Source of the DNA: Acidobacteriota bacterium
GTDB lineage: Bacteria > Acidobacteriota > CAIWXX01
DNA length: 64,000 nucleotides
Assembly: GCA_040755995.1 (NCBI GenBank)
Contig: JBFMAF010000020.1
Coordinates: 128,001-192,000, forward strand
Reading direction: 5' to 3'
The notes under the pieces were generated by a model. It worked only from the letters and a program-made list of their open reading frames with translations. It was not told where the DNA came from and did no database searches. The position numbers were made by a program, and so were the translations under genes. Positions 34,528 to 47,425 of this stretch are shown piece by piece (position 1 is the first letter of the stretch; every line of letters begins with the position of its first letter).

Positions 34528-36069
34528 ATGCCGAAGGTCGAAGGTCCACCACCCCCACCACCACCGCCGCCCCCGCCGTCCGGCACCCCCACTGAGGGGG
34601 GAGGCACGTATACCGTGAGGAGGGGCGATACGATGACCGGGATCGCCCGGCAGCATCAGGTACCGCTCAATGACCTGATCCAGGCAAATCCGCAGATCCA
34701 GAACCCCGACCGCATCTTCCCGGGCCAGGAGCTGAGCATCCCCGCCAGACAGCAGCCGGCCGTGCAGGCACCGCCTGTTGATCGATTCGAGCCCTCTCAG
34801 CCGAATGTCTTCGGGCAGCTCGTACAGCCCCAGCTGACACCGGTTCAGGTCGACCAGAATACGCGCGCGTCGACGGTAGCCGACCTCGACCAGGCCATGA
34901 CCCGCACCGGTCAGGGTATGAACGCGACCGAGCGCCAGGCGCTCGAACGCCACCTCAACGGCCTCAGCGGTCCGGCGCTCCAGAACGAGACGCAGTTCCT
35001 TCGCGATCACGTCGTGAACTCGCCCAACGCCGACCGAGCGGCCCGGACGTATCTCGAGCTCCGCGACATGCAGAGCGCCAACCCGAGCCGGATCAACAAC
35101 GACGTCGTGCACACGCTGACGCGCGGTGTTGCGGATCGCCGCACTGACGCCGCGGCCGGTCAGGAAGGCCTCATGGGCCGGCAGCAGGCGATCGACGCGG
35201 CCACGGCGCTTACTCGAATGCCGCAGTCCGAGTACAACCGTGTCACGCAGATGCTCAACGGCGCCGGACAGCGCGGGGGGAGTCCGATACCGGGAGCCGA
35301 TGCGCAGACGGAGCGCGCGCTGATTCTGGAGTCGGTCGCGGCGCGCCGCGATCAGCTCTCGAATCCGCCCGTTTGGGACCGGATCCGCAATGCGGTGGGC
35401 CAGCCGTCGCGAGCGATGAGCGATATCCAGACTTACGCCGACCAGATCCGAGGCACGCCGCGCAATGAGCTGATACAGAATTCGACCGTGCTCGATCTCA
35501 ACGGCGACGCCGCTGCCGAAGCGCTGCAGCAGAGGTTCAGCCATTCTTGCGCTCCGACTACCGCTCAGATAGCACGGGCCGAAGTCGATCCGATTTACGC
35601 GAGGCAACTTCACCAGGAAGCTATCCATTCGACGGCGATGGATACGGCCATCGGCCGCGAGCAGCGGGCGTCGCTTGAAGAGCACGGCGGCGTCGCCGTA
35701 GCTCGTGACGCAGCCGGCGGACGCGGGGTGAACACTGCGCTGCCGCTCAACGATCTCGCCGCACCGTACACCAATCGCACGTACACGCGGAATGAGCTTG
35801 CCGACACGCCCGATGCCCGCCAGCAGGCGCTTGATCGTGCCGATGCCCTGCTTCGTCGCGGGGTCGACGTGCCGGTCGCCGTGGCGTGGGATGGTGGAGG
35901 CGGCCATGCGCAGATACTCACCGACGTACGCGGCTCCGGCAACAACCGGGAGTACCTCCTGACCGACCCGTACAACGGCGAGACGCGCTGGCTGCGCCAC
36001 CAGGACATCGTGAACGGGCACACCAATTTCGCATGCGGCACCGGCCGGCTGCGCGCCACGTTCGAGTGA
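34528..36069 (+). CDS. LysM-domain protein with Pro-rich N-terminus and C-terminal papain-like (C39-like) peptidase domain
   Basis: GAGGAGG RBS; poly-Pro; LysM YTVRRGDTMTGIA...ANPQIQNPDRIFPGQELSIP; C-terminal LQQRFSHSCAPTT...GGGHAQIL...LTDPYNG (Q/C/H/D). No Sec signal peptide. Confidence 0.8.
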   Translation: MPKVEGPPPPPPPPPPPSGTPTEGGGTYTVRRGDTMTGIARQHQVPLNDLIQANPQIQNPDRIFPGQELSIPARQQPAVQAPPVDRFEPSQPNVFGQLVQPQLTPVQVDQNTRASTVADLDQAMTRTGQGMNATERQALERHLNGLSGPALQNETQFLRDHVVNSPNADRAARTYLELRDMQSANPSRINNDVVHTLTRGVADRRTDAAAGQEGLMGRQQAIDAATALTRMPQSEYNRVTQMLNGAGQRGGSPIPGADAQTERALILESVAARRDQLSNPPVWDRIRNAVGQPSRAMSDIQTYADQIRGTPRNELIQNSTVLDLNGDAAAEALQQRFSHSCAPTTAQIARAEVDPIYARQLHQEAIHSTAMDTAIGREQRASLEEHGGVAVARDAAGGRGVNTALPLNDLAAPYTNRTYTRNELADTPDARQQALDRADALLRRGVDVPVAVAWDGGGGHAQILTDVRGSGNNREYLLTDPYNGETRWLRHQDIVNGHTNFACGTGRLRATFE

Positions 36070-36071
36070 GG

Positions 36072-36599
36072 ATGAACCGCACGTGCCGAAGAGCGCGCGG
36101 CCTCATCGTGACGACTGTGCTGGTCGCGGCCGGGTGTCTTTCGGGCACTGCTGAGAGGGGTGAACGAATGAAGCTGCCATTTGAACCCGACGCCAAACGG
36201 TGTCATGAGGATCTGAAGCAAACGAATGCCGCCTACCAGCAGGGGTTCGCGGCGCTGCGCGCGCTGGCGGATTCCGACAGCCCGTTCGACGAGCGCCTCC
36301 ACCGGTTCATGAAATCGCACGAGGCGACGCTGGCGGCGGCGCAGACGCAGCCGCAGCGCCAGACGTGGGTCGAAGAGGATGTTTACTTGTGCTGCGTTTG
36401 GGACCTTCTCCAGTCCATGTTTGCTGCCGAGGCTCAATCGATTGCCGGCAGCTCCCGCACGGTGGCGGAGAAGAGAGGCGCGCTCGACGAGCTCTCGAAA
36501 CGAGTCGACAAGCTTCCGTTCGGAAGCCCGCTCTGGAGAGACGGACCGCGCGCGAGGATCCAGAAACGGTTGGCGGACGCCCGCGACGCGCTGTCGTGA
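36072..36599 (+). CDS. Putative helical lipoprotein (candidate immunity or partner protein)
   Basis: Basic N-terminus, hydrophobic stretch and VAAGC lipobox-like motif; starts 2 nt after the LysM gene stop. Confidence 0.55.
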   Translation: MNRTCRRARGLIVTTVLVAAGCLSGTAERGERMKLPFEPDAKRCHEDLKQTNAAYQQGFAALRALADSDSPFDERLHRFMKSHEATLAAAQTQPQRQTWVEEDVYLCCVWDLLQSMFAAEAQSIAGSSRTVAEKRGALDELSKRVDKLPFGSPLWRDGPRARIQKRLADARDALS

Positions 36600-36624
36600 G
36601 TCCGCCGGATGAGGAGAATCTGAT

Positions 36625-37062
36625 ATGGAACTCAAGGAGCTGCTGGCGATACAACCGAGGGACTATCTGAAGGACGGGCTGCTCGGCCCGACAGGCGAGA
36701 TCCGCGACCGGGTCAACGGCTACTACTCGCTGGCGATGGCGTACAGGTGCCGCGAGGAGGGCCTCACGCCCGACGTGCTGAAGCGGATCGTGACGCGGCT
36801 GGAGGATGTGGCGAAGGGGCACGAGAAGGAGCTCGACGACAAGGGGCGCCCATCGCTCGACCAGCCGGCGCGCTCTGCGTTGCAGAGCGTCCAGGCGATG
36901 CCGGAGGTCAAGCAGTCAGCGACCTGCGCAGCGATCTTCCAGGCGGCGATGCCGCACTTGACCGAGTGGAAGAGCTACGCGGCGTTCGCTCTGCACGTCG
37001 ACCGGATCATGGCGCAGCTGGCGCTGATCGTCGCGGCCAAGGCCATGGGGGAGCAATCGTAG
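36625..37062 (+). CDS. Stand-alone Csm2 (Cas11, type III-A small subunit)-like helical protein
   Basis: GAGGAG RBS; YLKDGLL..TGEIR...GLTPDVLKRI...AAIFQAAM..LTEWKSYAAFALHVDRIMA resembles the Csm2 layout by eye. ORF confident, family assignment tentative. Confidence 0.55.
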   Translation: MELKELLAIQPRDYLKDGLLGPTGEIRDRVNGYYSLAMAYRCREEGLTPDVLKRIVTRLEDVAKGHEKELDDKGRPSLDQPARSALQSVQAMPEVKQSATCAAIFQAAMPHLTEWKSYAAFALHVDRIMAQLALIVAAKAMGEQS

Positions 37063-37380
37063 CGACGATTCGACGGAGGGCCGGGGACCGTGTGATGGCG
37101 AGGTTGTCTGTCTACTCGCGCTGCTGACTAGTTTCGTGAAAGGCTGACAGCGGCTAGCGCGACCTTCGCGCGTAGTTCCGGATGGCCTTGTCGGTGCGTC
37201 CTTCGAGGGCGTGTGGGGCGATCCGGCCGCACTCGCCGGTCCCGTTCTGTGGGGCGCACAGAGACAGGCACTTCTGGCTCCTGTTTCTGCTCTTCACGCA
37301 GCCTGATGGTCTCCCGGCCAGTCTGATTTGTCGGCGCTGTTTCATCGATCCCTCCTCCAAGAGACTGACTATATCAGATC
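36881..37380 (+). repeat. Direct repeat A, copy 1 (3' of Csm2-like gene + small Cys-rich gene + promoter)
   Basis: Colinear, diverged copy at 42757-43253 (tgcagagcgt.caggcgatgccgga ... ctgactatatcagatc). Confidence 0.92.
37154..37345 (-). CDS. 63-aa basic Cys-rich small protein, copy 1
   Basis: Extended -10 TGaTATAGT (37368-37376) and GGAGGAGG RBS; C16/C26/C30/C39/H45; intact second copy at 43027-43218. Confidence 0.7.
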   Translation of the reverse strand: MKQRRQIRLAGRPSGCVKSRNRSQKCLSLCAPQNGTGECGRIAPHALEGRTDKAIRNYARRSR

Positions 37381-37408
37381 ACCAACCCTGGTGATTTGGG
37401 CAGGAGCT

Positions 37409-37658
37409 CTAATCGCGGAATCCGCGCATGTCGCGGACACCGGAGGTGATTCGCGCAATGTCGATCTCGGCGCCGTCGCCGATGCCGTGCACTGTGAACT
37501 GTTTCGAGGGCAGCTCCAGGACGCCGAAGGTGGAGCTGGTATGGACCGATTCGCGTGGCGGAACATCGCGGAGGATGCTCCCGGGGTTCACGATCAGCCC
37601 CTCGCCCATCGCACGAAGGGCGAAGGGTACATGTCTGTGTCCCACGATGAGCACAGCG
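37409..37658 (-). pseudogene. Metallophosphoesterase (YfcE-like) 3' fragment; direct repeat B, copy 1
   Basis: VLIVGHRHVPF...LIVNPGS...TFGVLEL is the C-terminal GHxH/NPGS part only; copy at 41514-41763. Confidence 0.7.
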
Positions 37659-37722
37659 GCACGACGGGAGTTTAGGATGCCGGGCGTCCGCAATGATAGA
37701 CTCCTCTAGTCGGGAGGTCGTC

Positions 37723-39021
37723 ATGGACGCTGCTGGCAGAGGAGATATCGACGTCATCGTGGTGGGGAGCGGACCGGGGGGAGCAAGCGTGGCGAGGGAC
37801 CTGGCCCGCTGCGGACAGCGCGTCCTCATCTTGGAATGGGGTCCGGGTGGGCCGATCAGTGGCACCTTCGCGCAGTTCGCGAGGGAGTTGGCGGTTCCAG
37901 GCAAGAGCTTGCTACTGACGAGCCAGCTTCTCGGAATGGTTCGTGGTATCACCACGGGCGGCAGCTCGGTCTTCTATTACGGCACGTGCTTCCCGGTTCC
38001 GCTCGAGATGCTCGCAGCCTACGGGGTGGATCTCGCACAGGACGTCGCGGAAGTGCGCAGAGAACTTCCGGTCGGGCCCCTCAAAGACGAGATGATGACG
38101 CCGATGGCCACCCGGCTCATGGAGAGTGCGCAACGTCTCGGCTTCAAATGGCAGAAGCTCGACAAGTTCATGTACCAGGACCGGTGGAAGCCCGAGTACC
38201 GCTTCGGCTACTACGGCGACCTGCACGGCGTGAAATGGAGCGCCCGCATGTACGCCGAGGAAGCGGTGGCGCACGGCGCGGTCCTCGTCAACGGCGCGAA
38301 GGTGGAATGCGTGATCGTCGAAAACGGGGTGGCCACCGGGGTCGAGTATCGGAAAGACGGTGGCCGATGCACGGCATCCGCGCCTGTCGTCGTGGTGTCA
38401 GCCGGCGGAATCGGCTCACCTCTGATTCTGCGCAACAGCGGCATTCGTGAGGCGGGCTACGATTTCTTCTTCGATCCGCTGATCACGGTGTGCGGGACGA
38501 TCAAGGACGTGACGCTGCATCACAACGAGATTCCCATGTCCGCCGGGGTCTTGATGAAGGACGAGGGGTACGTGATGACCGACATGGCCCTGCCACCTTC
38601 GAACCACGTGGCCCTTACCGCGCAGGTCCTGCGCTTCGACAAGCTCATCGCCTTCCGTCACACGGCGCGCATCATGATCAAGGTGAAGGACCGGCTGAGC
38701 GGCCATCTCACCGCCCGGGGCGGCGTGCGCAAGAAGCTCGCCGGTGAAGACGCCGGCAAGCTGTTGCATGGGTACGCCAACGCCAGGCGCATCCTTCGGG
38801 AGGCGGGCGCCCGGGACATTTACAAGACGTGGTACCTCGCGGCGCACCCGGGCGGAACCGTCAAGATCGGTCAGCTGGTCGACGCCAACCTGCAGACGCG
38901 GTACCGCAACCTGTACGTCTGCGATTGCTCTGTCATCCCCGAAGCCTGGGGACTGCCGCCGGTCCTCACCCTCGTGAGCCTGGGCAAGCGGCTGGCACGA
39001 CATCTTGCGGGCGAACGGTAG
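37723..39021 (+). CDS. GMC-family FAD oxidoreductase
   Basis: GGGAGG RBS; DVIVVGSGPGG, GGSS, VVSAGGIGSP, AHPGGT, NLYVCDCSVIP, PVLTL. Confidence 0.9.
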   Translation: MDAAGRGDIDVIVVGSGPGGASVARDLARCGQRVLILEWGPGGPISGTFAQFARELAVPGKSLLLTSQLLGMVRGITTGGSSVFYYGTCFPVPLEMLAAYGVDLAQDVAEVRRELPVGPLKDEMMTPMATRLMESAQRLGFKWQKLDKFMYQDRWKPEYRFGYYGDLHGVKWSARMYAEEAVAHGAVLVNGAKVECVIVENGVATGVEYRKDGGRCTASAPVVVVSAGGIGSPLILRNSGIREAGYDFFFDPLITVCGTIKDVTLHHNEIPMSAGVLMKDEGYVMTDMALPPSNHVALTAQVLRFDKLIAFRHTARIMIKVKDRLSGHLTARGGVRKKLAGEDAGKLLHGYANARRILREAGARDIYKTWYLAAHPGGTVKIGQLVDANLQTRYRNLYVCDCSVIPEAWGLPPVLTLVSLGKRLARHLAGER

Positions 39022-39319
39022 CTAGTAGGAACGAGCAGCGAGGACAACGTGACGCCGCGCGCACAGCGCTGGACTCGATCAAGCTGTGGAGCATGAAACC
39101 TGCCCTCGCGACGCTGAACAAGAAACATTACCCGTGACCGATGTGCGAGTTCTGGTGCCATACGAGAGGCCGCCGGGGCGTAGGTGAGGGATGCCGTTCT
39201 GGCGCGCCACCGTGCAAGCATCCTGATCTAAGGAAAGGTGCTTCATGCCCGTCACCATTCCTCCCGCCGAGGCTCTCCTGGGAGCGCGCTGTGAGGGGCT
39301 TGCGCTTGGGGTTGTACTT

Positions 39320-39433
39320 CATGGCGAGCAGCGCCTGGTTCGAACAGATGTGGCTCGTGGCGTTTTCTCGAGCGACATGCTGCTCGCGGCCCTCCTTCAC
39401 CAGCGCCAGCGCCTTCCGCCCCTTCAGATCGTC
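39320..39433 (-). pseudogene. gcvPA: Short internal fragment of glycine decarboxylase P-protein subunit 1
   Basis: REQHVARENATSHICSNQALLA matches the conserved REQHIRREKATSNICxNQAL motif; no further homology on either side. Confidence 0.65.
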
Positions 39434-39501
39434 GCTGCATGCAGCACGCAGCAAAACACCGCTGGCTCTGGCTGTGTCAGGGCATACTGCGTTTCGGATT
39501 C

Positions 39502-39530
39502 TTGACATCACAGAGCATATCCGATAGTAT
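39502..39530 (+). promoter_or_regulatory. sigma70 promoter of vapBC, probably leaderless
   Basis: TTGACA-N17-TAGTAT with the ATG 7 nt after the -10 and no SD; a CATA-N8-TATG inverted repeat overlaps the -10. Confidence 0.7.
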
Positions 39531-39537
39531 GTTTTGT

Positions 39538-39747
39538 ATGCGAACTACGTTGGATCTGCCGGAAGAACTCGTCGAGGAAGCTCGCCGGGCATTGGGGTTC
39601 AAATCCAAGACTGATACTGTCATCCTGTCGTTGCAGGAGCTGATTCGCCGGGGCCGCATCACTGAGTTGAAGAAGATCATGGGATCGGTCCGCCTCGAGC
39701 TTGACCTCGACAGGAGCCGGCGACGACCAGGCCGATCAACCCGGTGA
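39538..39747 (+). CDS. vapB: VapB-family antitoxin
   Basis: [36 protein letters not shown]; overlaps the PIN toxin start. Confidence 0.88.
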
Positions 39748-40130
39748 TCGTCGTCGACACATCGGTGTGGGGAGCGGCCCTGCGTCGCGGGCAAGGGCCG
39801 GAGGCCCGTCACCTCACGGGACTACTCGATTCTGATCTCGTTGCGCTCGCCGCCCCCGTCAGGATAGAGATCCTTGCAGGTGCATCACAGGAGGACCGCT
39901 CGCGACTCCGCCGCGTCTTGTCGGCACTTCCGGTTCTCTATCCGAAGGAATCTACCTGGACACTAATCGATGAGTGGGTTGACCGCGCGGCAGCGGCTGG
40001 AGAGCGATTCGGTTTTGCCGACCTGCTCATCGCCGCGATCACAGCTGAGAGCGGAGCGGAGATCTGGTCTCTGGACTCGGACTTCGAGCGAATGGTGCGA
40101 CTCGGGTTCTTGCATCGTCACCGGGCGTGA
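39744..40130 (+). CDS. vapC: VapC PIN-domain ribonuclease toxin
   Basis: [28 protein letters not shown]. Confidence 0.9.
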
Positions 40131-40493
40131 GTGAGGCCGCGAGCTGCTGCCTCGTGCTTACAACACGTGTATGCAGTCGATCACCGACTGAGGGTATCTC
40201 GACTCCGTCAGCGTTTGTATGGCAGGGCAGATGTGCGCGGGACCGCGAAAAGCGTGCTGACTTGGAGGAGGTGCACCATTATTTCGAATCGAGGATTGCG
40301 AAGGGCTGTCCTGTTGGGCGCAGGCTTGATACAACTGGCGGTGCTGCCGACGGCGAGAGCAGGGTCGAACGGGGATCAGTGGATCGGTTCGCCCGATACA
40401 CCCAACTTCGCATACGTAATGGGCACCGGCTACTACGAGCCGCCGGAGGTTCCGATGCCCGAATCCCTTGTCGACGTTCTCGAACAGCGCCAT

Positions 40494-40943
40494 CTATGCA
40501 GCGTCGAGCTCATCAAGAACGATCACCTTCAGCTCGCTGACGCGCTTCATAGTGGGATCATTGGTCAACAGGGCGTCGCAACCCGCCGCGAGCGCGGTCG
40601 CGCCTTGAAAGGCATCCGCCAATGTCAGGTTGTGACGCGCCCGCAGTTCGGCCGCGCGTGCTGAAACATGCTCATCGATCCGTTGGAACGACGTGTTGTC
40701 TCCGTTGACGATCAGGTCCGAGAAAGCCCGAGTCGCCTCTTCATTTCGGAGCCGGAGCGGGTGGACCAGGCATTCAGCGAGCGTGACGGGCGAGGTGACG
40801 GCCTGTAGGGCGCCCGAATCGATGCGCTCGAATACATGCGTTACGATCGGGAGGTACAGCAGGTTCTTCTCGACAAAGTAGATGACGGGCGCCGTGTCCA
40901 GAAAGACGAGGCGCACACCTTGCGGACACTCGACGAGTGTCAT
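40494..40943 (-). CDS. vapC: VapC PIN-domain toxin
   Basis: VFLDTAPVIYF, TLAECL, LADAFQ.ATA, LLTND; ATGA overlap with the upstream antitoxin. Confidence 0.9.
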   Translation of the reverse strand: MTLVECPQGVRLVFLDTAPVIYFVEKNLLYLPIVTHVFERIDSGALQAVTSPVTLAECLVHPLRLRNEEATRAFSDLIVNGDNTSFQRIDEHVSARAAELRARHNLTLADAFQGATALAAGCDALLTNDPTMKRVSELKVIVLDELDAA

Positions 40944-41194
40944 CCCGTGCGCCTCAGATGGCCTTCCCGTTGTATGTCCGAATCGCGGCGCATGCGAGAT
41001 ACCCACGCCTGCGCGTCTTCTCCCGTCAAGGGGCAAGGGACGATCCCTGCGATCTCCATCCACTTCCGGCGCGGTCTCGAAGGCTCATCCGCGCGGCTGA
41101 CCTCCTCGACCAGATGCGCCGCGAGACGGAGCTTCTCTCGCGGTGGCAAAGCACTTGCCTGAGCGATCAGGTCGTCGAGCAAGGTGGATGCCAT
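40940..41194 (-). CDS. Putative antitoxin of the PIN toxin; direct repeat C, copy 1
   Basis: 84 aa, upstream of and coupled to vapC; TTGCCG-N16-TATAAT promoter and AAGGAGG RBS; paralogue at 46960-47214. Confidence 0.75.
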   Translation of the reverse strand: MASTLLDDLIAQASALPPREKLRLAAHLVEEVSRADEPSRPRRKWMEIAGIVPCPLTGEDAQAWVSRMRRDSDIQREGHLRRTG

Positions 41195-41297
41195 GCCGCC
41201 TCCTTGGCCCGATTATACACGGCCCGGTCTCACCGGCAAGGGCGCCGCCGCGGTCAGACAATGTGGCGAGGTAAGTTTCCTAATTGGGAACCGAGGT

Positions 41298-41490
41298 TCA
41301 CGGCCAGAGTTTCTTGTCGACCTTCTCGAGCACTGAGATCGACTTGTTGAACCTGGTCGCCTCAGTCTTGGTCCAAGTTCCGAAAAGGTGATCCAGTGAG
41401 TCACCGATCGTGTCCGCATGAATCCCTGGGCCTGCAATGCCCGCACCCTTCTTCATGAGCGGGATCGCAGCCTGATTGAGCGATCGACGG
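41298..41490 (-). pseudogene. C-terminal fragment of a VapB-type antitoxin
   Basis: SLNQAA..LMKKGAG...IGDSLDHLFGTWT..EA..F...EKVDKKLWP pattern; N-terminal DNA-binding strand and cognate toxin absent. Confidence 0.5.
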
Positions 41491-41513
41491 GCGTGGCGAT
41501 TCAAGACTGGGCG

Positions 41514-41763
41514 CTAATCGCGGAAACTTCGCATATCGCGGACGCCGGCGGTGATTCGCAGTATGTCCATCTCCGCGCCGCCGGCAATCCGATGCACAGT
41601 GAACCGCTTCGACGGCAGCTCCAGGACGCCGAACGTCGCACTGCTGTAAACCGATTCCCAACGCGGGACATCCCGGAGGACGCTCCCTGGATTCACAATC
41701 AGCCCCTCGCCCATCGCATGAAGGGCGAAGGGTACATGTCTGTGTCCCACGATGAGCACAGCG
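41514..41763 (-). pseudogene. Metallophosphoesterase 3' fragment; direct repeat B, copy 2
   Basis: Colinear diverged copy of 37409-37658. Confidence 0.7.
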
Positions 41764-41946
41764 TCGGGCGCTCGCCAGCCGGATGCTCGAAGCGTCAGGG
41801 CCACTGGCGCCAACAAGAAAAGACCGGGAGCCGTCGGAAAAACAGGCACCTGCTTTGTATACTATAGGTAAGCGAATAGGGATCCCAATCGGAGCTGGGC
41901 GCACTCGTAGTGTCTGCACTCGCGGGCACGGAAAGGAGAGGAAACC

Positions 41947-42174
41947 ATGCACCCTGGTTGGTCGATAGATCCGAATGCGGAGTGTTACCTGCCGCCAGGT
42001 GCCACGCATCACCTGGCCAGGATGTTGGAGTCCGGGCCGGATCGGTTTGACGAGATCCACGGAATACGCCGCCCGCGGTGGTTCGAATTCTGGAAGAAGC
42101 GGAAATGGGAGGCGCTCGTGGAGGAGTTGAAGAGTGATATCCGGGAGATCCTGCAGCGAAACGCCGCAGGATAG
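41947..42174 (+). CDS. Small hypothetical protein (possibly a remnant)
   Basis: Strong AAGGAGAGG RBS; 75 aa with RPRWFEFWK; no recognised domain. Confidence 0.4.
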   Translation: MHPGWSIDPNAECYLPPGATHHLARMLESGPDRFDEIHGIRRPRWFEFWKKRKWEALVEELKSDIREILQRNAAG

Positions 42175-42273
42175 CCCAGCTCGCAGCTGTGGACTGGACC
42201 CATCGGGTAGATTCAGGCTGGATGACGGTTCCTTTGCTCCCTCACCACGTAGACACTGCGCGCCGTCGGCCGA

Positions 42274-42750
42274 TCAGCAATTACCGGGGGCTGCCGACCC
42301 CCTTGCGACACGAATCGCCAATAGGATCGCCCGATGCAGGGACTCGAACCCATGACCTGGGCAGGATACCCACGGTCTTCCAGCTTCGCTCGCCGCGCGC
42401 CGGAGAAACCGCCCCAGGCCGGTCCTCACGAAGCGCATCAACACCAGGACATCGGATTGCCGAATCCGAGTCTCACACCCCTGTCTGAGCCTCCCCCAAC
42501 TACTGCCCCAGCCGGGGAAGATGAACTCAAGACTACAACCCGGCTCCTCTGCGGCGATCGCCGTGCGAAGATCGTCACCATAGGCAGCTTGCGTCTCGTT
42601 ACCCCCGATGAACAACACCCGGACTGGCATTGTTCGAACAGCCGAGGGAGCGCTAGGCGCAGCCTCCGTCGAACACGCCGCTACCAGAAGACGACGTCTT
42701 AGCGCCTCGATCGATTCCTTCGACTCCCCAAGGTGCTCCAGACGTAGCAC
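42274..42750 (-). pseudogene. C-terminal fragment with DUF2325-like Rossmannoid domain
   Basis: VRVLFIGGNE...SDVLVLMRFVRT.L...RRAA...RPWV; its 5' end abuts the boundary of repeat A copy 2 (42757). Confidence 0.5.
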
Positions 42751-42756
42751 GATTTC

Positions 42757-43253
42757 TGCAGAGCGTGCAGGCGATGCCGGAAGTCGGCCAGTCGGCGACG
42801 TTCTCCGCGATCTTCCAGGCGGCGATGCCGCACTTGACCGAGTGGAAGAGCTACGCGGCCTTCGCCCTGCACGTCGACCGGATCATGGTGCAGCTGGCGC
42901 TGATCACCGCAGCGAAGGCCATGGGAGAACCAGCGTAGCGGAAGATTCGACGGCGGGCCGGGGACCGGGTGACGCCGAGGTTGTCTACTCGCGCGGCCGA
43001 CTGATGACGTGAAACGCTGACGCCGGCTAGCGCGACCTTCGCGAGTAGTTCCGGATGGCCCTGTCGGTGCGACCTTCGAGCCCGTGTGGCGCGATCCGGC
43101 CGCACTCGCCGGTCCCAGCCTGCGGAGCGCACAGAGACAGGCACTTCTGGCTCCTGTTTCTGGTCTTCACGCAGCCTGATGGTCTCCCGGCCAGTCTGAC
43201 TTGTCGGCGCTGTTTCATCAATCCCTCCTCCAAGCCACTGACTATATCAGATC
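42757..43253 (+). repeat. Direct repeat A, copy 2 (Csm2-like 3' remnant + intact small Cys-rich gene)
   Basis: Colinear with 36881-37380. Confidence 0.92.
43027..43218 (-). CDS. 63-aa basic Cys-rich small protein, copy 2
   Basis: Same length, RBS and -10 as 37154-37345; all Cys/His kept, six mostly conservative substitutions. Confidence 0.7.
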   Translation of the reverse strand: MKQRRQVRLAGRPSGCVKTRNRSQKCLSLCAPQAGTGECGRIAPHGLEGRTDRAIRNYSRRSR

Positions 43254-43435
43254 GCCCTGCGTCTTTCTGGGGCATGTGGGGAGGGGTATCTTGGTGTCTC
43301 TGCATCTGCCCTGCCAAGACGGCTGTTCGTTGACATGGCGACCGTCTCGGCCTACATTCTGGTGGCGCTGCACAGGGTCGGGCTCATCGAAGACGAGCTC
43401 GAGCAGCTCAAGGGGGTGCGAGACAACTGCCGACC

Positions 43436-44427
43436 ATGCACATCTCGATCCGGGTGCCCTGGCACGACGACCGGTGGTCAGGAAAGGTGTGTCGACGACC
43501 ACGCGAGAACATCGAGTGCCTCGCCTTGCGAAGGATTGTAGATAGAAAGAACGACGACCAGGAAGAACAATGCGCCGAGATCGGGATGGGCGAACTCGAT
43601 GAGCAGAAGCGCCCCCCCTGCGCCACGGAGCGCGCATTCTTCATGGCGGACTTCGAATTGGAGAGGTTGGCAACCCATCCCTACAAGGGGAAGAACCCCC
43701 TTTACGACGCTTTTCTCCCCACTCCGTTTAAGCATCCGGCTTATTCGGCCGCATGCATTCCCTTCCGCTGGATGCTGACCGAGCAGGTCACAGGGGATGA
43801 GCGGAAACGGATCAAGAGCCTCGCCGAATCACTCCGCCTCGGATACGACTCGCATAGAGAACCAAAGCTCGACAGAGAAACCGACTGGGTACAGGAGTTC
43901 CAGAATCAGCGCTGCCTGCTCGATACCTGCTTCAGTGGAATCGAGCCAGATGAGTCTCTGTGTTTCTTCTACGCCAAGAGCACGCCGATGTCCAAATCCA
44001 ACCGACGAGTCATTGTAGGAGTAGGCAGGGGCCGACCCAAGGAGAATGCGCGCCTTTGTCACTGCCGCGCTCGAGAACGCTGCGGACAGAGGACACACTC
44101 TACTGCCGAGGGACCTAGTTATCGATGCCGTTCAGGAACGCGAGGCTTGCCCGAAAGTGCCATGCACGAGGGACGTACTGGCTGCCGCCGAGGAGACCTT
44201 CGATCCGGCAGTGCTCATCATTAACCGAGATGGAGGCGAATCGTTCTACCAATTGGACCGATTCGTGGCGACACGGCGATTGATAGCGACCGAGGTCGAG
44301 AAGCGACTGAAAGGCAAGCGGCACGAGAGGGACCTCCCCTGGCACGACATGGTTAGCCAGTCATTGCCTGCGTTGCCTGACGAAAAGACAGAACGCGCCA
44401 TCGAGAAGAAGGCCCGAGAGGAGAAGG
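43436..44427 (+). pseudogene. Remnant of a large RecD-like (SF1B) helicase gene: two fused fragments, truncated before Walker A
   Basis: HISIRVPWHD..W.G.VC..P..N..C...SLCFFYAK...RVIVGVG (43436-~44030) joined out of frame to DPRRMRAFV..LE.AA..GHTLLP...KAREEK (~44033-44427). Recognised by eye; no P-loop follows. Confidence 0.6.
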
Positions 44428-44856
44428 ATGCGCATCTGCGGGCTGGCTTCATTCAAACGCTGGGCTCAGAGCTTCGGAGGTGATGTGGAAGTGATCAAGC
44501 CGGCGTAGGACAGGGCGAGGGACTCCGCGAGCGCCACGCCGCTACGACTTCTTCCCTTCCTTGCAGGAATCCCCCCGGTTCCTCTTGTTCCTGCTTGAGA
44601 ACAATGGAAATGAACCTGTGCTTGGAGTAGCATGCGGGCAGGTGACACCGATGGAAGTCTGCCACTGGAAATGCAGGGCGCCCGGGAATCGCACAGCCAC
44701 GCTGTCGATTGAGGAACGGGAGCGAGACCGTACTCGACTGCTCCACAGCAGGCCTCCGGAAGCGAGGCATTATCACGCGCGCACCGTACTGCCGCTACAT
44801 CCAGGCCCGTCGGGCTGACCACTGCAAAGGCAATGGCACCACAGGAGAGAGAGCAC

Positions 44857-46005
44857 ATGACAGATGAAACAACGCTCGTCGTGCGCAACTTCGCGCAGAT
44901 CGAAGAGGTGAACCTCAGCTTCGGGGACTTGTCTGTGCTCGTGGGAGCCCAGGCGACGGGGAAGAGCTTGGCGCTGCAGTGGATGAAGACCGCGATCGAC
45001 GGCCGGCAGATCGTCTCTGCACTGCGCGATGCGGGGCAGGATGTAAGAGATCCCAAAGTTCTTGTCGACTTGATCTTCGGGGTCGGCATGGCTGCCGCCT
45101 GGCGCAGCGATTCCAAGGTGATCTTCAACGGCAATGAAATACGGCCTGCAGAGATCCACAAGATCGGCAACGGTAAAGAAAAGGCCTTTTTCATACCGGC
45201 CCACCGATCGATTCTCATCAGCGACGGGTGGGCGGCACCTTTCCAGAAGCTCACCTCGGATACGCCGGTCGTCGCGAGGATTTTTAGCCAGAATCTCTTT
45301 GAGCGCTTCAGTGCTCGTGGCAGCGGCGATCTGTTCCCGCTTCCACGGGTGCTGAAAGGGCAATACCGCGAGATCATCGATTCAGCCGTATTTCACGGGG
45401 GTGTGATCGGCCTTGAACAGGACCGGCAGCACGCAAAGCGCCTGAGGCTGAAGTATGGCGAATCTCAGCTTCCATTCATGACGTGGACCGCTGGACAGCG
45501 CGAGTTCACTCCGCTGCTTCTCGGGCTTTACCACCTGCTTCCACCAAGGCGACTCGTGAAGCAGCCCGAGATCGATTGGGTGATAATCGAGGAACCGGAG
45601 TTGGGGCTCCATCCGGAGGCTGTGACAGCGTTCCTGCTTCTCACGCTCGATCTCCTGTGGCGTGGCTACAGGGTGGTGCTCTCCACTCACTCGCCGCACG
45701 TGCTGACGGCGATTTGGATGCTTAGGAGGCTCCGGCAGCATAACGCGCGTTGGCAGTTGCTCTGCGATGCGTTCGATGTGCGACGATCTCAGGACTTCCA
45801 GAAGGTCGCGGAGGCCGCGCTTCACAAGAGCTACCGCGTCCATCTGCTGGAGTTCGGTCCGGACGGCAAAGTGCGATCCTCAGACATCTCCAACCTCGAC
45901 CCTGAAGCTAGCGATGAAGGCGAATCCGGCTGGGGCGGGCTGACGGGCTTCAGCTCGCGCTTCGGCGATGCCGTACGAAAGGCCGTAAACGAGAGCGGCC
46001 GATGA
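44857..46005 (+). CDS. Soluble ABC-type ATPase (AAA_15/AAA_21, OLD/AbiEii-like clade)
   Basis: VRNFAQI, Walker A GAQATGKS, FIPAHRS, signature WTAGQRE, Walker B/D-loop IIEEPELGLHP, H-loop LSTHSP; no permease nearby. Confidence 0.88.
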   Translation: MTDETTLVVRNFAQIEEVNLSFGDLSVLVGAQATGKSLALQWMKTAIDGRQIVSALRDAGQDVRDPKVLVDLIFGVGMAAAWRSDSKVIFNGNEIRPAEIHKIGNGKEKAFFIPAHRSILISDGWAAPFQKLTSDTPVVARIFSQNLFERFSARGSGDLFPLPRVLKGQYREIIDSAVFHGGVIGLEQDRQHAKRLRLKYGESQLPFMTWTAGQREFTPLLLGLYHLLPPRRLVKQPEIDWVIIEEPELGLHPEAVTAFLLLTLDLLWRGYRVVLSTHSPHVLTAIWMLRRLRQHNARWQLLCDAFDVRRSQDFQKVAEAALHKSYRVHLLEFGPDGKVRSSDISNLDPEASDEGESGWGGLTGFSSRFGDAVRKAVNESGR

Positions 46006-46559
46006 AGCCGGACCGCAGGAGGCGCGTGCAGCAAACACCGATCCGCGCCGCTCTGACCACGACCTCAGGCTTGAGGTCCCAGGTCCGAGACTATCTTGGG
46101 GCGATGAAACATGCCCATCTCGCCCATGTTGACATGTCCCTGCGAACGGAATTCGCGGACAGCATGAACCTCGACGAAGCTATGCGACGCGGACACAGCA
46201 GGGAGAGCCGGTGGGACTACCTGCTTGGTCACGAGCCCTCCACCCTCGTCATCGGCCTCGAACCGCACTCCGCGGCCACACGTCAAATCTCTACGGTCAT
46301 CGCGAAGCGCAAGGCTGCTTGGCGCCAGCTCAGGCCACACCTCAAACCCGGCGCAACCGTAGCCGCGTGGCTGTGGGTCGCATCGGGCGAGGTCCATTTC
46401 GCGGACACGGAAAAGGCTCGGCGGCAGCTCGACCAGCATGGCATCCAGTTCGTCGGCAGGACCTTGCAGCGAAAGCATATACCTCGCCCCGCCGGAGGAA
46501 AGGCAAGGACCACTGCCCCTACTAGTCGCGAATGCCCTCGTCCTTGCTGCACCGTATGA
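46002..46559 (+). CDS. ATPase-coupled hypothetical protein, putative PD-(D/E)XK-like nuclease
   Basis: ATGA overlap with the ATPase; LDE...RWDYLLG...IGLEPHSA...VIAK...WLWVASG layout of acidic and basic residues. Confidence 0.55.
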   Translation: MKPDRRRRVQQTPIRAALTTTSGLRSQVRDYLGAMKHAHLAHVDMSLRTEFADSMNLDEAMRRGHSRESRWDYLLGHEPSTLVIGLEPHSAATRQISTVIAKRKAAWRQLRPHLKPGATVAAWLWVASGEVHFADTEKARRQLDQHGIQFVGRTLQRKHIPRPAGGKARTTAPTSRECPRPCCTV

Positions 46560-46715
46560 CGAGGTTGCCCAGCGGCCGGTTGAGCGCGTCGGCCACGCCC
46601 TCCGCCTTGCTCCTCCCCGCATCGGCCCCGAACGCGTTGACATCGACGCCGACTGGTCAATCAGAAACAAGATGCATCCGGGATTGCTGCGACTGATCTC
46701 TGCTGCGTATGCCAT
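46522..46715 (-). pseudogene. 5' remnant of a TerY-like VWA protein
   Basis: MAYAAEISRSNPGCILFLIDQSASM (MIDAS DxSxS), then a frameshift to ...KAEGVADALNR..NLVIRCSKDEGIRD*; truncated. Confidence 0.7.
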
Positions 46716-46959
46716 GGTCATTTCCTCCCTTGTCTTCCATGCGTCCACAGACAATGTCGACCGTGGCGCGACAAGATTCTTGCCGCGGCTGCCAAACCGT
46801 GTGAATGAAGAAGCGATCTACAGCGGATGATCGATGGACCGATTGTCGGGTCTGTCGTCATTTATCATGCCAAATGACGACGGCGCCGTCAGGCCGGCTG
46901 CACCGACAGCACGGCTGCACAGGCGATGGAGATCTGCCGGGCAGAACAGTCGAGGAGCG

Positions 46960-47214
46960 TTATCCCGCTCGATTCAAGCGACCTTCGCGCTCTGTGTCCG
47001 AGTCGCGCCGCGTGCGAGATACCCACGCCTGGGCGTCTTCCCCTGCCAAAGGACAGGGGACGATGCCTGAGATCTCCAGCCACTTCCGGCGCGGGCTCGA
47101 CCGCTCATGCGCCCGGTTGGCCTCCTGGATCAGATGCACCGCGAAACGCAGCTTCTCCTGTGTTGACAGGCCATTGGCCCGCGAGATCAGGTCGTCAAGC
47201 AAAGTGGATGGCAT
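46960..47214 (-). CDS. Orphan antitoxin; direct repeat C, copy 2
   Basis: 84-aa paralogue of 40940-41194 with a conserved promoter (TTGCCC-N16-TATGAT); downstream toxin lost. Confidence 0.7.
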   Translation of the reverse strand: MPSTLLDDLISRANGLSTQEKLRFAVHLIQEANRAHERSSPRRKWLEISGIVPCPLAGEDAQAWVSRTRRDSDTEREGRLNRAG

Positions 47215-47425
47215 CTCGCCTCGCTAATTCCATCATACACGGCCCCATCTCACGGGCAAGGACGTTGCACCAGAGTCTCTCACGATGCGGAACCAAGACT
47301 CGCCCGATTGCTCAAGGGTCAGGCTCGCGCCAACATAGCGCACAGGGGTACTGAGGCCAACCAGGTTCAATGGCTCGCGCGATGAATGTGCGAGATCCCG
47401 CCGGATAGTTGCGGGACCGCCCTGG

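Follow-up and report, generated by a model that had tools for sequence, protein, structure and literature searches.

A Csm2-like protein of an Acidobacteriota bacterium as the candidate cytoplasmic partner of a predicted exported protease

What does a protein with the layout of Csm2, the small subunit of type III-A CRISPR complexes, do outside any CRISPR-cas locus? The question was raised by a 64,000-nucleotide stretch of an Acidobacteriota genome (the window; Table 1), in which a first-pass annotation had picked out a stand-alone Csm2/Cas11-like gene. The annotation had proposed either a Cas11 fold exapted for protein binding or a trans-acting modulator of type III complexes. Its observation held for the ORF, the motifs, the similarity to Csm2, the repeated 3′ end and the lack of a CRISPR locus; it did not hold for the isolation of the gene. 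Between its two interpretations, we retained protein binding and abandoned the CRISPR modulator. Our best reading, which leans on a modelled complex, is that the Cas11 fold was reused as a cytoplasmic cap, chaperone or antitoxin, of a predicted exported protease.

Table 1. Positions of the features within the window
Feature	Coordinates	Strand	Description or basis
Protease gene	34528..36069	+	513 aa; predicted exported effector with a low-complexity leader (no signal peptide), a LysM domain, a helical domain and a papain-like cysteine protease domain
LysM domain of protease	34609..34743	+	PF01476, E 2.4e-15
Docking helix P-x-VWDRIRNAVGQ of helical domain	35365..35403	+	predicted docking site, interface of modelled complex
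Predicted catalytic Gln (35527), Cys (35548), His (35905), Asp (35965)	35527..35967	+	conservation, papain fold
Predicted lipoprotein gene	36072..36599	+	175 aa; second conserved partner gene; hydrophobic leader ending AAGC; no Pfam family
RBS GAGGAG of Csm2-like gene	36611..36616	+	sequence
Csm2/Cas11-fold protein gene	36625..37062	+	145 aa, ATG start; predicted cytoplasmic partner of upstream protease
YLxxG(F/Y)xxxxGxxR N-terminal motif	36664..36705	+	also present in one subfamily of cas-linked Csm2
LTPDVLKR, degenerate counterpart of Csm2 helix-2 T-S-x-Q-L-R motif	36763..36786	+	profile alignment
5′-truncated remnant of second Csm2-like gene	42757..42938	+	open frame covering the last 60 codons; sequence upstream unrelated
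Duplicated block	42757..43256	+	88.7% identical over 504 bp to 36881-37383

Relationship of the Csm2-like protein to Csm2 and to type III CRISPR loci

All the layout motifs listed in the first-pass annotation are present in the ORF: YLKDG...GEIR at residues 14–27, LTPDVLKR at residues 47–54 and WKSYAAFALHVDRIMA at residues 115–130. In the alignment of the Csm2-like family, Tyr14 and Gly18 are each kept in 86 of the 92 members. Inspection of the alignment by eye revealed no signal peptide in the protein. Its AlphaFold2 model has a pLDDT of 92 and is almost all helix; matches in the Atlas scored 0.82 or less. With the model as query, the first 11 Foldseek rows were all Csm-complex chains (best E 0.053), and in another structure search Csm chains took 24 of the 24 first entries. 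VIA-align, run against 48,161 chains, placed Csm-complex chains in the top five positions (Z 9.7, 9.1, 8.9, 8.6 and 7.1; first non-Cas match 6.5), the best with rmsd 3.2 over 123 aligned residues. Compared to Csm2/Cas11 (PF03750; PDB 6MUR, 6IQW, 6IFK, 9ASH and 6NBU), the helical fold is the same, with Z of 8.6–10.2 and rmsd of 2.5–3.2 Å over 104–123 residues; according to the tool's own guidance, Z values of 9–10 are below the caution level for helical bundles and may be due to chance, so we turned to sequence profiles.

Close relatives (n = 13) were collected from 5.8 billion proteins, and their profile was run against 1.8 billion representatives, which returned 101 proteins including P0107, a true tandem Csm2 (E 4e-4). 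Of the 14 cas-linked Csm2 proteins that the same phylum provided, we set aside L069 and L070 as near-copies of L071; hhalign of the 92-member family profile against the other 12 gave a probability of 94.7% and an E of 6e-8 over 124 columns. The reversed profile reached a probability of 0.1, and the reversed and 30 block-shuffled profiles scored at most 21, against 51 for the true one. Against four hand-picked cas-linked Csm2 proteins, the probability was 96.2%. The family thus matches cas-linked Csm2 by profile, yet the curated models name nothing: Pfam has no match for the query or 12 close homologs, PF03750 hits only P0107 among 97 wider matches, the NCBIfam Csm2 models match 0/92 family members, and PADLOC names no family for the protein. 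The closest Csm2 subfamily (L068, L073, L074 and P0107) also starts with YLxxGYFDxxGxL. P0107 itself combines two Csm2 domains with a zinc-finger domain, and the N-terminus of L073 (L073:1318-1815) is rich in Cys; no short relatives of P0107 turned up when we searched for them.

A quickly built tree of 112 rows sets the family apart as its own clade, separated from 14 Csm2 domains by a long branch with support of 100. The tree is unrooted; the direction from Csm2 to partner was taken from the narrow range of the Csm2-like family. In the available text of PMC10289348, Csm2 helix 2 contacts the target RNA, its Arg is required for cleavage and the RNA-binding surface is basic. All 12 cas-linked Csm2 proteins have the helix-2 Gln and Arg, whereas the aligned columns of the family hold Gln in 9, Arg in 10 and Lys in 27 of the 92 members; judged from the motif, the helix-2 column would correspond to R41/R49 of Csm2. 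The median pI of the family is 5.2 and 13 of the 92 members are basic, compared to 9.5 and 12/12 for cas-linked Csm2. The SQLR and AY..R motifs, which the first-pass annotation had described as degenerate in this protein, are degenerate across the whole family (SxQLR and AY..R). Computed at the sequence level, these features suggest that the Csm2-like protein has lost its RNA contacts. It agrees with Csm2 in fold and profile homology and departs from it in motif, charge and context: unlike Csm2, the family is acidic, has no cas neighbours, and is linked to, and predicted to bind, a protease. Descent from Csm2 is our best reading of these data.

Two other accounts of the Csm2 likeness have to be considered. 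It may reflect convergence of small helical bundles, so that the protease partner is unrelated to Cas11. The silence of Pfam and NCBIfam fits such an account, as do the low identity of the structural alignments (8–12%), the probability of only 17% when a narrow 14-member profile (A1) is compared with the same set of 12 Csm2 proteins (A4), and a profile search of PDB sequences that returned no Csm2 chain. (The top match of that search, I-CreI variants with E 5e-4, covered two short helical stretches only and was dropped.) We nevertheless consider convergence very unlikely: two structure tools rank Csm chains first, the wide profile is far above its controls, and the search of 1.8 billion proteins reached the true Csm2 P0107 unsupervised. 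The other account, that of a trans-acting modulator or spare small subunit of type III complexes, has in its favour the Csm2 fold and the CRISPR loci of some carriers. Contig C11 of the host genome (99.84% complete) carries a type III-B locus that includes a Cmr5 of its own as well as Cas10 and an array, the carrier G025 has a type III-A Csm2 (1/7 carriers of the phylum sample), and the carrier G083 has RAMP genes. However, the host system already possesses a small subunit, RAMP genes are absent in 4/5 other carriers (two of these 95–96% complete, and G056 with four family copies among them), and the gene is tightly linked to a non-CRISPR protease. Relatives were not found in viral contigs, phages or plasmids, and a mobile anti-CRISPR reading was therefore dropped. 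We regard the modulator account as extremely unlikely. Complementation of a csm2-less system, raised by the suggestion to look for a type III system lacking csm2, was likewise rejected: Csm2 is absent from the host genome, and its type III system is a III-B one equipped with Cmr5.

The lack of cas genes and arrays noted in the first pass was borne out. No CRISPR array of at least four repeats was found on this contig, the eight Cas proteins of the host's own locus had no match in the window, and as probes they matched none of the 16 Csm2-like loci described below. Also found in the III-B locus (G000:C11:96500-111000, L030) are a fusion of Cas6, reverse transcriptase and Cas1, a further RAMP gene and a gene for a 363-aa protein without a Pfam family.

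Operon linkage and the predicted protease-partner complex

The Csm2-like gene is not a stand-alone gene. It is the last gene of a conserved three-gene operon, in which the gene for the LysM/helical/papain-like protease comes first and that for the lipoprotein second. The start of the protease was picked from an upstream GAGGAGG; the leader end AAGC, read by the lipobox rule, is what we take to mark the second product as a lipoprotein. Host contig C21 carries another full-length paralog (32% identical), likewise behind a second protease gene. We counted 16 Csm2-like loci, with L002/G131, L003/L037 and L005/L006 each taken once and the remnant left out. Ten of them lie directly behind the protease (0–1 intact gene between), two are fused to its helical domain, three stand behind the lipoprotein only and one is alone (L084); lipoprotein homologs occur at 7/16 loci. 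Among these, the lipoprotein-only locus L038 ends at a contig edge, and the L034 fusion is interrupted by a frameshift close to its start. Seen from the protease side (n = 13), ten loci have an adjacent partner, two have none and one is cut (L057, L058, L055). Among the 401 genomes of the phylum sample, seven have strong matches to the Csm2-like family and six have the protease/helical family, all six being among those seven; the borderline genomes G097 and G268 (E about 9e-4, inside long frames) were excluded from all counts.

Fusions recur in the databases. In five proteins, a Csm2-like domain is attached C-terminally to the helical domain; these fusions occupy three separate, weakly resolved places in the tree, and in P0070 the Csm2-like domain is fused to a C-terminal PG_binding_1 domain. 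At L033:6807-7247 and L035:6640-7119, lipoprotein homologs without a signal peptide precede the Csm2-like gene with no protease nearby, and L002 has a second, broken lipoprotein copy.

The protease model (pLDDT 96) matches papain-fold proteases. Its best Foldseek matches are the antibacterial toxins 8ssk and 9l5u; against 8ssm it has a Z of 11.6 over 131 residues, a match confined to the peptidase domain. The Gln, Cys, His and Asp residues are invariant in 29/29 sequences (the query and the best 28 of 35 matches). The 36 homologs, of 338–673 aa, contain only LysM-type domains, PG_binding_1 or no Pfam domain, and some come from Myxococcaceae and named Corallococcus species. As a lead only, the Atlas places similar helical-plus-papain proteins in clusters labelled peptidoglycan-binding or having WXG100 domains. 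Like Cpe1-Cpi1 (PDB 9L5U, PMC12136450) and StbD-CT-StbI (PDB 8SSK/8SSM), the pair described here combines a Cys-His-Asp papain fold behind a helical domain with a small downstream partner gene (79–239 aa for the immunity genes of such pairs), and the partners in those two systems bind outside the active site. Different from both systems, no T6SS or CdiA carrier (PAAR, VgrG, Rhs, CdiA) was seen in the 36 homologs, with neighbours judged by eye; some proteases carry LysM or PG_binding_1; and there is an additional lipoprotein. The partner folds also differ: Csm2-like here, a beta-sheet protein in StbI and no structural homolog for Cpi1. The S1 Table of PMC12136450 lists papain toxins from Acidobacteriota and Myxococcota, which could include members of this protease family.

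We then predicted the complex between the Csm2-like protein and a protease fragment (window 34834-36066, so that the first 102 protease residues are outside the model). The score was 0.77 (runs 0.77, 0.73 and 0.78), and the best of three controls reached 0.01; the mark for this score is attained by 116/157 solved pairs and 2/215 mismatched ones. The runs share at least 94% of the contacts, with partner pLDDT of at least 90. In the model, the interface is formed by one helix of the helical domain, which would lie far from the catalytic residues. In L040 and P0150, a Pro-rich stretch takes the place of this docking helix, and the corresponding partners are without the W115-K116 patch and the segment that faces the helix (about residues 63–81). 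The L040 pair is seen directly, the P0150/P0012 pairing indirectly, and the paired loss probably represents one event. Distances of protease and partner are uncorrelated (Mantel rho 0.16, p 0.25 for 13 pairs; 0.29, p 0.19 for nine pairs), and between the host paralogs the proteases are 43% identical, compared to 32% for the partners. The modelled complex supports binding between protease and partner, and we think it quite probable that the two proteins are physical partners, whichever role the Csm2-like one plays.

Export genes and the role of the partner

None of 26 protease N-termini carries a hydrophobic signal (top 10-residue hydropathy 1.09, vs 2.69 for the lipoprotein). By eye, they resemble the N-terminus of the SctP-like protein of the host's own export cluster. 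This cluster (G000:C10:29800-46200; L042, L043) is the one non-flagellar type III export cluster of the host; it has FHA-domain proteins and matches to SctJ, L, N, O, P, Q, S, T and V, with a single SctN and a single SctV. There is no flagellin in the host genome, and none of the 13 export-cluster ORFs scanned is a secretin, needle or translocon protein. The set is like the needle-less T3SS* of Myxococcus xanthus in its Sct proteins, its FHA proteins and its export apparatus/sorting platform without a flagellum; it differs in belonging to an Acidobacteriota host, and TadB/C-like single-domain genes were not seen. T3SS* is required for Myxococcus prey lysis according to the accessible text of PMC12075869 and PMC10849154, the former of which speaks of its effectors as potential; neither names a cargo or chaperone in that text.

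Across the phylum, a strong YscO-like export marker (E below 1e-10) occurs in 24/401 genomes, comprising 6/7 carriers of the Csm2-like family and 18/394 non-carriers. Both carriers outside the phylum (G401 and G403) also have type III export clusters, and myxobacterial-like type III export genes are found in 8/9 carriers. Carriers fall in three families of the phylum, so their co-occurrence with the marker is not independent, and 18 marker-positive genomes, including both same-family relatives, are without the module; the link to export is therefore suggestive only. G041 (95% complete) has two family members, one behind a lipoprotein and one a fusion, and neither SctV, SctN, SctO nor a full protease was found in it. 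G403 has the Csm2-like gene and no protease was found there; this lone gene lies about 30 kb from the type III cluster on the same contig. The G403 cluster ends (L096:4801-6752) with a small gene, presumably for a TPR chaperone by its look, and a 445-aa protein with a leader of this kind. Judged by eye, other genes near the loci (L058:1-2490, L033:8344-8970 and L032:3786-4187) also begin with low-complexity leaders resembling these (MKI.., MEIKSRI..), and their products are possible further substrates of the export system.

The mechanism that we propose is as follows. The Csm2-like protein, derived from Csm2 and relieved of RNA work, would be the dedicated cytoplasmic partner of the upstream protease. 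It would clamp a single exposed helix in the helical domain of the protease, at a distance from the active site, and in this way keep the enzyme soluble and inert inside the producer until it is exported, most likely via the host's non-flagellar, myxobacterial-like type III apparatus. The partner would thus act like a class IA type III chaperone of a different fold, and the lipoprotein would provide protection outside the cytoplasm. We hold this chaperone-like reading tentatively, at a little less than an even chance. The first-pass proposal of a Cas11 fold exapted for protein binding finds backing in the computed homology, the loss of basic RNA contacts, the conserved partner gene, the fusions and the predicted complex. 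Linkage and co-occurrence are computed as well, and the contact is a prediction; the export route, the toxicity of the protease and the preference for a chaperone over a pure immunity role are our inferences. The cap reading is supported by the linkage (10/16 adjacent, two fused), the complex score, the paired docking-helix loss and the protease N-termini without a hydrophobic signal, and, by analogy, by a partner that is small, acidic and beside its client as class IA chaperones are, together with the export genes of the carriers. Against it stand the two protease genes without an adjacent partner, the retention of two family members in G041, the protease not found in G403, the 18 marker-positive genomes that lack the module, the mid-protein position of the docking helix and the uncorrelated distances.

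In the available part of PMC3837300, the class IA chaperones ShcA, ShcM and DspB/F are small, acidic and encoded adjacent to their client. The Csm2-like protein shares these properties, as well as the lack of a signal peptide, the position beside one client (whose effector status we infer), a predicted contact away from the catalytic domain and type III export genes in its hosts. It differs from them in its all-helical model, in an export system without a demonstrated needle and in the predicted mode of binding, which is to a folded helix in the middle of the protein instead of an extended N-terminal beta-motif. No class I chaperone appears among the 50 listed folds, and FliS-type chaperones reach a Z of 5.1–5.8.

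A pure immunity protein or antitoxin would have no part in export and would neutralise the protease in the cytoplasm of the producer and of its kin, through contact with an exosite or a cell-entry helix. This reading is the strongest competitor, and in our judgement it is unlikely. The order of a toxin followed by a small gene fits it, as do the orphan copies at L033, L035 and L084, the likeness of the protease to antibacterial papain-like toxins, and the faster divergence of the partner between the host paralogs. The retention of the family in G041 without export genes or a full protease suits immunity better than chaperoning. Partners of such toxins, moreover, bind away from the active site, as far as the text at hand of PMC12136450 and 10.64898/2026.05.07.723447 goes. 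However, Cpi1 and StbI bind the peptidase domain, whereas the site predicted here is on the helical domain; the LysM and PG_binding_1 domains on several proteases point to a stage in the cell wall or periplasm, out of reach of a cytoplasmic protein, at which the lipoprotein is available for protection; and the protease genes that lack an adjacent partner speak against immunity too. A subunit or adaptor that leaves together with the protease and aids target docking or entry would explain why P0070 joins the domain to PG_binding_1 and why the helical-domain fusions keep an export-like leader ahead of the Csm2-like domain. Type III substrates are exported unfolded, however, the free copies have neither leader nor signal peptide, and a fusion persists in G041 without export genes; we consider co-export quite unlikely.

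If the protein is such a partner, the small subunit would join the CRISPR parts reused outside immunity, and in an uncommon direction, from RNA binding to protein binding. In the available text, a review of CRISPR exaptation (PMC8730458) treats Cas11 only inside CRISPR effector complexes. Our search of a mostly open-access literature found no non-CRISPR Csm2 family; effector-partner pairs are already known, and a Cas11-derived partner was not found in print. The module would offer a candidate substrate and helper for a needle-less type III system, and the protease homologs in named Corallococcus species make the export question testable. The immunity reading, too, would mean a new protease-inhibitor fold. 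A further-reaching version, which we consider possible and rather doubtful, is that a CRISPR subunit became a new class of export chaperone for needle-less type III systems, that the protease is its cargo and a prey-lysis effector of the kind postulated for myxobacteria, and that the module is a marker of contact-dependent killing by uncultured members of the Acidobacteriota and Eisenbacteria.

Duplicated block and the region downstream of the operon

As the first-pass annotation had noticed, the 3′ third of the Csm2-like gene recurs downstream. The copy is part of the 504-bp duplicated block and is best read as a truncated remnant; it spans about 40% of the gene with 88% nucleotide identity, and its codon differences comprise 11 synonymous and seven non-synonymous ones. 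Both copies of the block keep a small basic Cys-containing ORF on the minus strand (37154-37360 and 43027-43317) without a PADLOC match. Near 42340 lies a tRNA-like stretch that ARAGORN does not call.

The window from 37150 to 47300 is a patchwork of decayed and duplicated pieces. The metallophosphoesterase fragments at 37406-37658 and 41511-41763 are 84% identical, and an antitoxin-like gene is duplicated at 40926-41244 and 46946-47264 (78%). By eye, PIN-like toxin genes are found at 39744-40130 and 40494-41063. Candidate defence genes lie at 43436-46559, where a PDC-S68-matching fragment is accompanied by an intact PDC-M56A/B pair.
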